Origin: a virus
Taxonomy: Duplodnaviria > Caudoviricetes
Virus record (IMG/VR): IMGVR_UViG_3300047275_000752
Coordinates: 8,399-72,398 of that record
Reading direction: 5' to 3' (one strand)
DNA: 64,000 nt
Below are positions 3,377 to 55,814 of the stretch, piece after piece (positions within the stretch are counted from its first letter, which is position 1; each line of letters starts with the position of its first letter). The translations under genes were made by a program, and so were the position numbers. The notes under the pieces were generated by a model, which saw only the letters and a list, made by a program, of their open reading frames with translations, searched no databases and had not been told where the DNA came from.

Positions 3377-4408
3377 ATGAGTGATTCGCTATCGGTGAAC
3401 ATCGATATAAAAGGTCTTGATTTGCTGAGATTAAACAAGCAGCAGGTCGAGATGAATCGTTTCTTAACACTAGAGCGTAATGGTGACAAATTAACATTCA
3501 AGAAATCAGCAGAGCAATTAAGATTTGAGCAAGACAAAAAAGGCAAAAGATACAATGGTACCGAAAAAAACTTATTGAAACCAAAGCAAGATTACTTAAG
3601 TGATCGCCCAACAGCGCCAGGAACATTGCCTGAATATATGCTGATGCTGCCCACATCTGGGCCGGTGAGCGGGCAGGTGCCGTTCAAGAGCCGAGGGTTC
3701 CCCAAGTTCGGCTCCGTGGTGGCACAACCCAACTTTGGGGCACCGATCTACGAGCCGACCGGAGGTCCTAATGGTGCAGCAGCGCTGGCCTGTGAACCGG
3801 ACGTATACAAAGATGTACTCATCGAGGTCGAGTTCCCTTACGAGGGGAGTACCAGTCGATACAAGCAAGGCGTTAAGGACTTCACGCTGCAAGCCTATGC
3901 CAAGCTGACCGACGCGAACACTTTTCGCATCAATCAGCCTGAGCCTGTATTCGCCGTGCTTATAGGAAACACGGACTGGGTGCAAATTGATGTCAGGCTA
4001 GAAACAAACATCATCTCACTTAGACCGGTCGTTCGAGCCGTGCAACGTGACATTAGTTTTGAGATATATAGATCAGGCTATGACGATGTTACTCTTTACC
4101 GCGCCACAACGTCATTGAGTGACCCAACCGGCCCGCAGTTAATGCCGGGAGCCTGGCATCATTTGGCGATCAGCAAAAGCGGCAGCAATGTGTATGCGTT
4201 CTTTGATGGCGCCGTCATCGGCCAGGCGACTGTCGATTGGGATATGTTGCGGTTTTCGACTTCGCCTGATTTTGATTGGGGGCAAATCTATTTCGGAACT
4301 ACGGACACCGATGGGTCAGCCGCCGAGCCTGTTCGCGTGCATGGCCTTAAGTTTGAGGCTCGCGCGGTCTATACCGCACCCTTTACCCCGCCACCTTTCA
4401 TTACATGA
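3377..4408 (+). CDS. Protein with C-terminal LamG/concanavalin A-like domain
   Basis: GAWHHLAISKSGSNVYAFFDG is a LamG-type signature. Confidence 0.65.
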   Translation: MSDSLSVNIDIKGLDLLRLNKQQVEMNRFLTLERNGDKLTFKKSAEQLRFEQDKKGKRYNGTEKNLLKPKQDYLSDRPTAPGTLPEYMLMLPTSGPVSGQVPFKSRGFPKFGSVVAQPNFGAPIYEPTGGPNGAAALACEPDVYKDVLIEVEFPYEGSTSRYKQGVKDFTLQAYAKLTDANTFRINQPEPVFAVLIGNTDWVQIDVRLETNIISLRPVVRAVQRDISFEIYRSGYDDVTLYRATTSLSDPTGPQLMPGAWHHLAISKSGSNVYAFFDGAVIGQATVDWDMLRFSTSPDFDWGQIYFGTTDTDGSAAEPVRVHGLKFEARAVYTAPFTPPPFIT

Positions 4409-5671: not shown

Positions 5672-6565
5672 ATGGCACTTACTCTTGCAGAAGCCAAAAA
5701 GCATTCCAGTAATCCTCAGGAACTGGCTATTATCACTGAGCTTGCAGCCGGCCCCCTGCTGCAAAACATGCCCTTCCGTGAAGTCCAAGGCAACGGTCTT
5801 TTCTGGAAGCGCGAAGAGTCTCTCGGTGACGTGGGCTTCCGTGCTTTCAACGAAGGCTACACTGAGAGCTATGCTACTGTCAAGCAGCACAGTGAGGCAC
5901 TGAAGCTGTTCGGTGGCGACATCAAAGTTGATCGCGCTATCATCGAGCTGGAAGGCCCCGAAGCTCGCGCCTATCAGATCCAAGCCAAGACTCGCGCAAT
6001 GCGTCTGTCTTTCGAGGGTCTGTTCATCAATGGTGACTCGAACAGCAACTCTGCTGAGTTCGATGGTCTGGCTCGTCGTCTGCCTTCTGGTTCCAGCCAG
6101 TACATCGCCAATGGTGGTGGCGCTCTGGATACCGGCAAGCTGGATGAAGCCATTGACGCTGTCGACGCCCAAGGCGGCCAGAAGTATCTGGTCATGTCTA
6201 AGTCTGCTCGTCGTCATCTGAGCAAAGTTGCTCGTGCCAATGGTCAAATCGATATCGAGCGTAACGATTTCGGCTATCAGCAACTGTTCTATGGTGGCAT
6301 TCCGGTGCTTGAGCTGGATCGCGACCACCAGAACGTTGCTATTCTTGATGGTACCCCCAACAGCCAGTCGATCTATGTTGTTGCCTTTGGCAATGACCTG
6401 CTGACCGGTCTGCAGAATGGCGGTCCTCAAGTCCGTGACCTGGGTGAAGCTACTGATTCTCCCGTGCTGGTTACCCGCGTGGAATGGTATTGTGGCCTGG
6501 CTTTGATAAATGGCCGTGCCGCCGCTCGCCTTGCCGGTGTGGACGCTACCGCCGCTGTTACCTGA
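5672..6565 (+). CDS. Major capsid protein (HK97-like), 297 aa
   Basis: MALTLAEAKK start, ~300 aa, follows scaffold, AAGGA RBS, strongly biased codon use, terminator behind. Confidence 0.8.
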   Translation: MALTLAEAKKHSSNPQELAIITELAAGPLLQNMPFREVQGNGLFWKREESLGDVGFRAFNEGYTESYATVKQHSEALKLFGGDIKVDRAIIELEGPEARAYQIQAKTRAMRLSFEGLFINGDSNSNSAEFDGLARRLPSGSSQYIANGGGALDTGKLDEAIDAVDAQGGQKYLVMSKSARRHLSKVARANGQIDIERNDFGYQQLFYGGIPVLELDRDHQNVAILDGTPNSQSIYVVAFGNDLLTGLQNGGPQVRDLGEATDSPVLVTRVEWYCGLALINGRAAARLAGVDATAAVT

Positions 6566-53212: not shown

Positions 53213-53488
53213 ATGCCCAAGAGAGTTGCGATGGCACTTGTCACAATGCTGGCATTCACTCCAGTGTCAGCATCCGCCCAGTGGGCGCAGACATGTACTC
53301 GTGATCCAAATTCTAGTGTAAACCTGCGTTCTGGTCCTAGTCGCAATCATAGCGTCATTGCCTCGATTCCGCCCAATACTTACGTCAGGGCAATGACTTG
53401 GGTATGGGGTGGCGATGGCATGAAGTGGTATCGAGTAGAAGCAAATGGCCTTGTTGGTTGGCAGCGCCAGGATTTCCTATGTGTTTAA
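53213..53488 (+). CDS. Secreted bacterial SH3 (SH3b) domain protein
   Basis: Signal peptide; VNLRSGPS...WYRVEANGLVGW. Confidence 0.8.
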   Translation: MPKRVAMALVTMLAFTPVSASAQWAQTCTRDPNSSVNLRSGPSRNHSVIASIPPNTYVRAMTWVWGGDGMKWYRVEANGLVGWQRQDFLCV

Positions 53489-53514
53489 CCGATTTTCAGG
53501 CTACCGCTTGAATT

Positions 53515-53985
53515 ATGAATCAATCAGCCAATGTCAGTCAACAGTCCAAGCCTCGTGAGATTACGATTAAAATCCCTCGCTTACCAAAGGACAATGTCGT
53601 CATCATGGCAGGCATAATAGGCTTTTTGATTGCATTTATTTTTGGTTCATTCGTCCTAAAGGAATTAAATGAATTAAAGCAACAGCAGAAGACTTCAGAA
53701 GAGCGCATCAAGAAGGAGGTCTTAATGCCAGGAGGTACAACTGAATACAAGACCGAATTCAAGCCAGATCCATCGAGGGACACAGCAAAGGACCTAGTGA
53801 CCGAACCAGTCGACAGCAGACCAACATCCGCTGTCGAGAATGTCACTCCAACTCCAGTCATTAAAGACAGCAGGCCGCAGTCAGTCCCAGCGCCTCCCCC
53901 ACCAACTCGTCTAGGTCCTGGTAATTTTGACGGCGGCTATACTCCGTCGTATAGCGGAAACCGGACCGGTCCGGGCAACATGTAA
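53515..53985 (+). CDS. Single-pass membrane protein with Pro-rich tail ending LGPGNF/GPGNM
   Basis: TM VVIMAGIIGFLIAFIFGSFV; the LGPGN motif is shared with the next gene. Confidence 0.55.
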   Translation: MNQSANVSQQSKPREITIKIPRLPKDNVVIMAGIIGFLIAFIFGSFVLKELNELKQQQKTSEERIKKEVLMPGGTTEYKTEFKPDPSRDTAKDLVTEPVDSRPTSAVENVTPTPVIKDSRPQSVPAPPPPTRLGPGNFDGGYTPSYSGNRTGPGNM

Positions 53986-53988
53986 CCA

Positions 53989-54750
53989 ATGAAAACCAAC
54001 AAAACCAAAGTGATAGCAGTTCTTGCGTTTGGAGCTGGTGCCGTGGCTTATACCGCTGCATCGATAAAAAACGAAACAATCAGACAACAAGAAGCCAGGT
54101 ATCAGCAAATGGTTCTTTTGGCAATGCAAACAGATAACCCAAGCCCGATTCAGCAAGTTGACTCATTGGGGCCAGGTAATCTGGTACCGCTTGAGCAATT
54201 ACCAGTTGATGCTACTCCAACACCAGGATATACGAGCCAACCAGGCTCAGCTCCGAAGAAGATTATTTACAAGCCAACAGCTCCGGCAGTACCAGTCAAG
54301 CCGGTATTCTCGATTATCGTTGAACGTACTAACGAAAAACTAGATCAGACTGGCGACCCGATTTGGAAAGTAGCCCTAGTCGACAATTCTGGCAAAGAAC
54401 TGGATGCCCTTAAAGCCTTATCTGGCAGAGCCTCAAAACAAAAGGCAAATCGTAATCAAGGGGGCAATAAATCTCCTTTACCTGGCGGTATCTACGCCAT
54501 TGATGTTAGCGGCATTGAGCGCGGGCCTTTTGGCGACCCCGAACTTGGTCATGGATATTGGGTGCCTATTTCACCGCTTTTTAACACAGGACGTTCTGCT
54601 CTTGGATTTCACCAAGACCCATCATGGGGCAAGGTAAATGGAGAATCTGGCACTTCTGGTTGCGTTGGCCTAGAAAGTCCAGAAGCGACATCAAAACTGG
54701 TTAACTGGATCAGAACTTATCAGGTCAACAAAGTAATTGTCGCTTCCTGA
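53989..54750 (+). CDS. L,D-transpeptidase (YkuD) family protein, membrane-anchored
   Basis: SPLPGGIY...LGFH...SGTSGCVGL (H...SxGC catalytic motif); N-terminal TM. Confidence 0.75.
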   Translation: MKTNKTKVIAVLAFGAGAVAYTAASIKNETIRQQEARYQQMVLLAMQTDNPSPIQQVDSLGPGNLVPLEQLPVDATPTPGYTSQPGSAPKKIIYKPTAPAVPVKPVFSIIVERTNEKLDQTGDPIWKVALVDNSGKELDALKALSGRASKQKANRNQGGNKSPLPGGIYAIDVSGIERGPFGDPELGHGYWVPISPLFNTGRSALGFHQDPSWGKVNGESGTSGCVGLESPEATSKLVNWIRTYQVNKVIVAS

Positions 54751-54768: not shown

Positions 54769-54799
54769 CCTGGGGGCGACCAACCCCCAGGATTTTTTT
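54769..54799. terminator. Bidirectional intrinsic terminator
   Basis: CCTGGGGG-N7-CCCCCAGG, with T7 on the + side and a T-rich tail on the - side. Confidence 0.8.
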
Positions 54800-55728
54800 G
54801 TGGGTCCCATCCCCACTAGATCCGTCAATGAGGTTAACGAATGCAACCCTCCCGTACTACCGGAAGAACGTACCCAAGTGATTACGGTCAGAGGGCACTC
54901 GGGAAGACCTCAGGCATCTTGCCGTATCGAACGGCATTTCTATGCTATGTGCATAGCGTGTTCCTTACACTAAGATGCAGGGACCCCTCGGTTTGAGCAT
55001 CATTCCTGGAACCATTTTGTCGGCGCCAACAAAATCGTTCCTATTTGGAAGCTAAGCTTGAGGGGTATTCTTACGTGTTGCCAAGCCGCAAGGCTTGACT
55101 CGCTTCAGGGCTTTACACATAAGGGTGGTAGCAGGAGGTGGGGAGCGACATGTGTATCACCCCACTCTTTCACTTCATCTAGCCGTATGGACCGACCAGC
55201 GAGAGGTGTTACACATCCTGCTAATGTTGCGGGGGTGATCAATCCCCCGGCCTGGTTACCCAGGACTTAGCCCGATACGACGACCGGAGATTTCCAGTCC
55301 TTGCAGAGCGGGGGTTGGTGCCGGTTTCCATTTATACCACCCAGAACTACGGAAACCGGTCAAATGGCATCCTGGGATAACCTCGTTCTCCCTTGGGGGC
55401 ACCCGTAGGCGTCCGGGACGGTGATTGCCGACCGCAACTTGCACAGGGAAGGATAACCCTCACCAACGGAGGATCCCAGAACCTGGCAAACCATACCGAC
55501 AGAGCAGTATGGGAATTTAGGATGACCCAGGTGTGCCCTTTTGGGGCAGGGACCTGGACTCTATCCATATCTGCGTGGAAAGCTTTATCCAAAGGACTAA
55601 GAGGCTTAAACTCCGCAGATTGTTGCCAATAGCCCCTCTTACTTCCCCAAAAAGCAGGAAAGTGCAGGCATCGAACCTGCAATGGCCGGTCCCGAGGAAC
55701 CGCCGGGAATTCCACCCGGAACACTCTC
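54800..55728 (-). ncRNA. Large structured ncRNA (~930 nt), GOLLD-like or new class
   Basis: No credible ORF; many 6-9 bp nested helices, pseudoknot candidates, a GNRA loop and two tRNA-like domains; flanked by TGGTATAAT and a terminator. Confidence 0.75.
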
Positions 55729-55740
55729 ATTATACCAAAA

Positions 55741-55814
<74 letters not shown>

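Follow-up and report, generated by a model that had tools for sequence, protein, structure and literature searches.

A recombining array of small structured RNA modules, including a putative orphan abiF-type RNA, beside a tRNA gene of a probable picocyanobacterial phage

The virus record analyzed in this work is 72,398 bp long and estimated to be 100% complete; the 64,000-nt stretch of it that was studied is referred to as the window. The genome encodes DUF3155, whose named cellular relatives belong to Synechococcus, and, among cultured phages, Synechococcus phage S-CBS4 gives the best named match (55% identity) to the phosphoesterase that flanks the region described here. Based on these two matches, the virus is most likely a picocyanobacterial siphovirus. 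On the minus strand, a tRNA-Arg(UCU) is followed by about a kilobase that is free of genes, for which the following elements were annotated:

55741-55814, minus strand: tRNA-Arg(UCU) with an aberrant T-loop and one acceptor mismatch
55729-55737, minus strand: extended -10 box of the host σ70 type (pattern match; predicted start at ~55723)
55621-55723, minus strand: module A, a closed multi-way junction that bears two hairpins and a mimic of the tRNA top half
55569-55620, minus strand: module B, a stem-closed hairpin
55521-55565, minus strand: module G, an 8-bp stem whose internal loops are conserved and whose apical insert is swappable
55491-55513, minus strand: module M1, a 6-bp hairpin with a conserved 10-nt loop
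55439-55490, minus strand: module N, a stem with a conserved internal loop
55364-55438, minus strand: module O, a two-hairpin module with 8 variants
55319-55361, minus strand: module P, a hairpin with a large conserved loop
55271-55312, minus strand: module M2, a short stem whose internal loop is CUCU/AU and whose apical part varies
55229-55270, minus strand: modules M3 and M4, two small hairpins that usually occur together and are separable
55129-55223, minus strand: module Q, a pseudoknotted module in which P1, P2 and the pseudoknot covary
55070-55123, minus strand: module R, a stem around a conserved hexaloop motif
54983-55066, minus strand: module Z, a putative orphan abiF (AbiFr/RCd22-type) RNA with an extended apical stem
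55011-55038, minus strand: apical insert of Z, a 28-nt palindrome that matches one present within dinD coding sequences and next to Bro-N genes
54913-54978, minus strand: element T, a predicted non-decoding tRNA scaffold whose anticodon arm is module H
54829-54912, minus strand: module W, a nested 3' domain
54800-54816, minus strand: W2, a small hairpin with one homologue
54769-54791, both strands: bidirectional intrinsic terminator-like hairpin (sequence pattern)

This gene-free kilobase is a genuine structured non-coding sequence. The longest overlapping open reading frame (127 aa, 55730-55347) carries stops and frameshifts in both of the closest relatives, in agreement with the non-coding status proposed in the initial annotation of the locus. 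The minus strand from 55730 to 54770 folds at -394 kcal/mol (z = -7.0) and none of 20 shuffles was equally stable, so that the proposed RNA also withstands the comparison with shuffled controls. The minus strand is more stable than the plus strand (-391 versus -355), and its fold exceeds those of all 16 sampled 956-nt genome windows, most of which are lower in G+C. Six of the helices described earlier were checked by coordinate and are exact complements, while the extended -10 box and the bidirectional terminator that had been placed at the two ends are both found there, the latter as a terminator-like hairpin. The general picture of a promoter-bounded structured RNA region on the minus strand beside a phage tRNA was therefore sound. 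That picture lacked the abiF-type RNA, the pseudoknot of module Q, which shows covariation, and two tRNA-like elements; ARAGORN flagged two tRNA-like pieces within the region.

The extended -10 box is conserved 5' of the first module in syntenic relatives. The same promoter type recurs at 28-36 kb and is distinct from the motif ahead of the virion genes, which suggests that the array may be expressed before the late phase. At the other end, a block of SH3, unknown and YkuD-like genes (53213-54750, plus strand) lies between the array and an HTH gene; it is not found at the corresponding position in loci L001, L003 and L004. The altered T-loop of the tRNA-Arg(UCU), partly common to locus L003, may reflect either an escape from tRNA-targeting defence or decay.

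Most of the region is absent from Rfam: at E<10, the tRNA-Arg was the sole real match, and no GOLLD, ROOL, OLE, tmRNA, RNase P or intron match was obtained. The GOLLD covariance model found no match in the window or in 19 homologous loci, and a blastn search of the array against cultured phages and plasmids gave no significant match apart from the tRNA. The array is similar to GOLLD and ROOL in its size, phage origin and tRNA neighbourhood. In contrast to them, it has no covariance-model match, no conserved 3' core and no conserved long-range pairing; in place of a universally conserved 3' region in fixed order, the 3' domain W is unique and the modules reorder. The initial suggestion of a GOLLD relative is thus not upheld. 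The region likewise does not fit the twister, pistol and hammerhead cores, and Rfam reports no match to these ribozymes.

We are nearly certain that the region is a string of about 15 small, swappable folded modules and not one giant RNA. At least one module was present in each of the well over 100 loci recovered by scans of viral and metagenome contigs. When 18 module patterns were mapped, 64 distinct architectures were found among 102 clusters of related viral loci, with 30 module pairs seen in both orders; the array in the window is the richest among the mapped clusters. In related viral loci, mostly just 5' of tRNAs, the modules are deleted, inserted, nested and reordered, and they can be split by tRNAs or internal promoters. 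For instance, the first homologue (L001) contains the pieces in a different order with a tRNA-Arg sitting between them, and in relatives this tRNA is located before, inside or after the array. Module A is joined directly to Z in L003 and L004, a two-module version (A and Z) with the tRNA-like element T, and follows Z in L005. The closest relatives, L056 and L064, differ from the window by clean insertions and deletions of module size. Among cultured phages, S-CBS4 has Z and a tRNA-like element right behind the corresponding phosphoesterase, and S-CBS2 carries modules M2 and G. A 150-kb phage that shares many modules (L018) has a sub-threshold permuted tmRNA match beside its array (6018-6218).

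The base pairing follows the same boundaries, as about 80% of predicted pairs fall within modules and compensatory covariation is located inside modules A, G, M1, Q and Z. Covariation among homologues, named in the initial annotation as a test of its RNA, is therefore present within modules, but the H-type pseudoknot drawn across two of them (55641-35/55604-598) is not kept: it spans the junction of A and B, none of the homologues contains module B, the 5' arm is variable, and the complement of this arm follows A in none of 12 homologues. In the same way, the helices do extend along the region but do not form one RNA fold, given that relatives gain, lose and reorder the modules, and the large ornate RNA originally proposed is divided in homologues into independent units occurring in both orders. 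Every module with homologues has a conserved fold. Several share a common design: a stem closes the module, the internal loop is conserved in sequence, and the tip is interchangeable and may house another module, a combination that would be typical for protein-binding sites.

In module A, whose mimic combines a T-arm with a 7-bp acceptor sealed by a loop and has no D-stem, 99.6% of cells are paired and five pairs show compensatory change in nine sequences; four additional, more divergent copies were found. Module A shares with the YrlA Y RNA (RF02553) a T-arm stacked on a loop-sealed acceptor, here in permuted order. Unlike YrlA, however, module A has no D-arm after the acceptor and no RF02553 match, and the genome has no Ro60 gene. 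It is plausible that A may act as a decoy for T-loop-reading proteins. A genome-wide scan for A elsewhere in this genome gave two matches, both of them chance. At least 120 viral stretches contain module G, in many cases immediately 5' of a tRNA (at most 50 nt away in 55 of ~120 contexts), with 356 of 360 cells paired over 45 distinct stems; no toxin genes were recognizable by inspection 3' of G in phages. An exact tandem duplicate of G lies 5' of an ORF in L190 (~3870-3990). The M1 hairpin is paired in 70 of 72 cells, with compensatory changes at four of six positions (12 variants). For module Q, 14 variants have 84/84 cells paired in P1, 41/42 in P2 and 56/56 in the pseudoknot core, while a second candidate helix, CUCU/AAGR, was rejected (38/56 paired).

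The ends of module P appear to resemble a CRISPR repeat, which we treat as a lead only; Rfam gave no CRISPR-DR match and plasmids no array match. No homologue was found for modules B and W, both unique to this genome. The predicted helices of W are simply nested according to a method blind to pseudoknots, and Rfam gave no match to an HDV-like theta ribozyme. No module patterns were found beside HEPN_RiboL-PSP and ApeA genes. Module V, another element of the cyanophage arrays, has a copy among the clustered tRNAs of Ralstonia phage RSP15 (L079, 2000-2075), a phage of Betaproteobacteria.

Judging from its motifs and from model matches of its homologues, module Z is an abiF-family RNA without its toxin. 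The abiF RNA (RF03085; AbiFr, RCd22) is the antitoxin of the AbiF/Abi_2 HEPN RNase, which it binds and neutralizes in cis and in trans (bioRxiv 10.1101/2025.04.15.648962; review PMC12737573), and has already been listed, with its function not given, in cyanophage S-CREM1 (PMC9964418). Z shares with it the closing stem, the conserved bulges (5' AAGC-type and 3' CAAA-type) and an A/C-rich 5' flank. Compact Z homologues match RF03085 over its full length with 40.9, 34.3 and 32.5 bits, of which the first is above the gathering cut-off of 37 bits. The copy in the window has no Rfam match, probably owing to its 45-nt insert, and the compact homologues align continuously with it. Long inserts are also tolerated in cellular abiF antitoxins, whose apical parts differ widely in length, and the variant letters of the window copy occur in these antitoxins as well. 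In 17 sequences, the 6-7 bp closing stem of Z is 97.5% paired with compensatory changes at 4/7 pairs.

For the cellular comparison, about 60 Abi_2 loci were collected; by inspection, the RNA in most of them lies downstream of a -10 box and upstream of the start codon, with a U-tract after it. A two-arm profile built from phage Z copies other than the Rfam-matching ones recovered the RNA in five of the first 11 cellular loci; these matches are located 150-160 nt upstream of the Abi_2 match and exceed the antisense and shuffled controls. Two cellular Abi_2 leaders (L202 and L245) contain a second type of leader RNA, not RF03085, whose CUCU-GC/AC internal loop is similar to phage modules M2 and G. 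The CUCU-G/AY loop common to G, M2 and this second type was found in 2 of 55 leaders compared with a shuffled mean of 0.9 (max 5) and is a lead only.

No Abi_2 gene (PF07751) was found in the complete 72-kb genome, so the Z locus is an orphan RNA and not a toxin-antitoxin locus; none was found in five related phage records either. In contrast to cellular abiF, which precedes a U-tract and an ORF, Z is joined to a tRNA or tRNA-like element, has a long apical insert with the dinD palindrome, and belongs to a set of about 15 modules. In 52 of 56 Z contexts such an element lies within 8 nt, and in a further three the neighbor by inspection is an apparently interrupted tRNA-Arg. In these three loci (L115, L118 and L143) the interruption after abiF is in the anticodon loop and is probably a group I intron. 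Since the tRNAs 3' of Z in phages have many identities, the identity of the neighbor seems irrelevant and its position fixed, which would fit an RNase P mark that sets the 3' end of Z.

When the whole array was compared with 301 bacterial genomes, 8 of 20 matches fell on the 28-nt palindrome at the tip of Z, which is present only in one subgroup of Z copies. In most matched loci the palindrome is in or beside dinD/Bro-N genes: it lies within dinD coding sequences (NF008573), occurs twice in the leader of one Bro-N gene (L290) and near another, and was also found upstream of a Panacea antitoxin gene. DinD scores as PADLOC PDC-S13, which is a candidate defence system only. No dinD/Bro-N gene was found in the phage genome, and the tip of Z, as judged by these matches, is a palindrome from genes that the phage lacks. 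Its capture provides a handle on the unexplained dinD element.

Element T, directly 3' of Z, has a 6-bp acceptor, a 5-nt D-loop and a 3-nt variable loop; A33 replaces U33, positions 32 and 38 are paired, and the center of the loop varies (CAU/GAU). The T-loop is decayed in some copies and there is no Rfam tRNA match. A decoding tRNA was rejected, as T has neither a 7-bp acceptor, nor U33, nor an open 7-nt anticodon loop. Hairpin H, the anticodon arm of T, is also found free or nested in G. These features make T a probable tag for RNases P and Z. In many arrays, the element after Z or tRNA-Arg belongs to a second tRNA-like family, in which a long rod replaces the anticodon arm (e.g. L003 9290-9200, L014 ~5940-5860, L031 4830-4905 and L080 3727-3810).

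Taken together, the two defence-linked motifs and the shuffling probably point to a decoy use of the array. In our estimate there is an even chance that the array is a cassette of RNA decoys aimed at defence proteins of the host, transcribed from a host σ70 promoter and cut to size at tRNA-like tags. In such a cassette, host σ70 polymerase would transcribe the array ahead of the late phase, and RNase P and the tRNA 3' nucleases would cleave at the tRNA or tRNA-like tags. The cleavage would give Z a defined 3' end, replacing the U-tract terminator of the cellular antitoxin, and the freed RNA would carry captured protein-binding sites. Z would then re-supply antitoxin to the host AbiF RNase and block abortive infection, comparable to the action of pseudo-ToxI on ToxN; the odds for this role of Z as an AbiF decoy are somewhat better than even. 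The remaining modules may be decoys for further defence proteins of the host that bind RNA or DNA, and their gain and loss would track changes in host defences. That most modules are anti-defence decoys falls slightly short of an even chance. Against the decoy reading as a whole, a host counterpart was traced for only two of about 15 elements, the window copy of Z itself reaches no Rfam match, and searches in Pseudomonadota gave no cellular partner for G, Q or the remaining modules.

Phage-encoded orphan copies of host defence RNAs have precedents in the pseudo-ToxI of phage ΦTE (PMC3594212) and the Racr RNA anti-CRISPRs (PMC10651486), single-type mimics that are experimentally proven; Z is likewise such a copy for which a decoy role is proposed. 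In contrast to these, the array chains many folds that are shuffled in tRNA leaders, and its function is predicted.

The strongest alternative, which we regard as rather unlikely, is that the modules are small RNAs or leaders with non-defence roles, such as protecting or steering pre-tRNA processing or titrating host proteins of translation and RNA metabolism; Z alone would then be a defence decoy or would have been repurposed. Small structured RNAs whose function is unknown include T4 RNAC and RNAD and the cyanophage manA and wcaG RNAs (PMC9697503; PMC2864571). Consistent with such roles, modules are found at transcript 5' ends and tRNA junctions, and manA, wcaG and the glutamine riboswitch occur in the same cyanophage loci, where manA abuts a tRNA-Pro; moreover, the module G pattern had no true match in 250 Pseudomonadota genomes and the module Q model none in 150, so that no cellular defence partner emerged for either. 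However, both modules with an identified source derive from defence-linked genes, tRNA maturation needs no such leaders, and the quick gain, loss and shuffling would be typical for arms-race loci. Like the array modules, manA adjoins a tRNA in two cyanophage loci; in contrast to manA and wcaG, which have no Rfam match in the window, the array modules are far more numerous, smaller and recombining. In the cyanomyovirus-like contig L016, manA (3463-3668), module G (3806-3867) and abiF (4240-4295) are each directly 5' of a different tRNA, which suggests that manA belongs with the tRNA-leader modules and not with cis-regulators.

It is improbable that the tRNA region is simply a recombination hot spot hoarding captured hairpins, with most modules being neutral passengers or DNA-level elements. 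The uniqueness of B and W, the reduction of the array to two modules in close relatives, and a palindrome that may work as DNA are compatible with neutral accretion, whereas the compensatory changes (including G-U pairs), the covarying pseudoknot of Q, loop sequences invariant across distant phages, a strand-specific position downstream of promoters and the exact distance to tRNAs all argue against it. One large ornate RNA, GOLLD-like or of a new class, with a global fold and variable domains in homologues, is largely refuted and very improbable: it accounts for the single promoter and terminator, the z-score of -7 and a tRNA neighbor such as GOLLD often has (PMC12286853), but not for the missing GOLLD match and universal core, the reordering and splitting of modules, or the predominantly intra-module pairing with its unconserved cross-module pseudoknot.

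The RNA decoy cassette, if confirmed, would represent a new format of counter-defence. The RNA-based forms known so far, pseudo-ToxI and the Racrs, are all single mimics, and no published description of shuffled multi-module RNA arrays, here potentially delivered via tRNA processing, was found in the literature. What this locus contributes is that a single module, in an array that is unusually full, holds two captured motifs linked to defence. Direct tests are feasible, as two Synechococcus phages in culture, S-CBS4 and S-CBS2, possess modules and E. coli can serve as assay host for AbiF toxicity. Roughly a dozen conserved RNA folds, all of them new, could be used as bait for RNA-controlled defence proteins, and decoy arrays would be one possible reason why the tRNA clusters of phages contain non-coding gaps. 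More tentatively, cyanophages may keep a recombining, cassette-like library of decoys, in which the captured sites of many different host defence proteins are strung together in tRNA leaders, some of them nested within others, and freed by the tRNA-processing enzymes of the host; if so, every uncharacterized module would lure a component of some cyanobacterial defence system that is regulated by RNA and still undiscovered.
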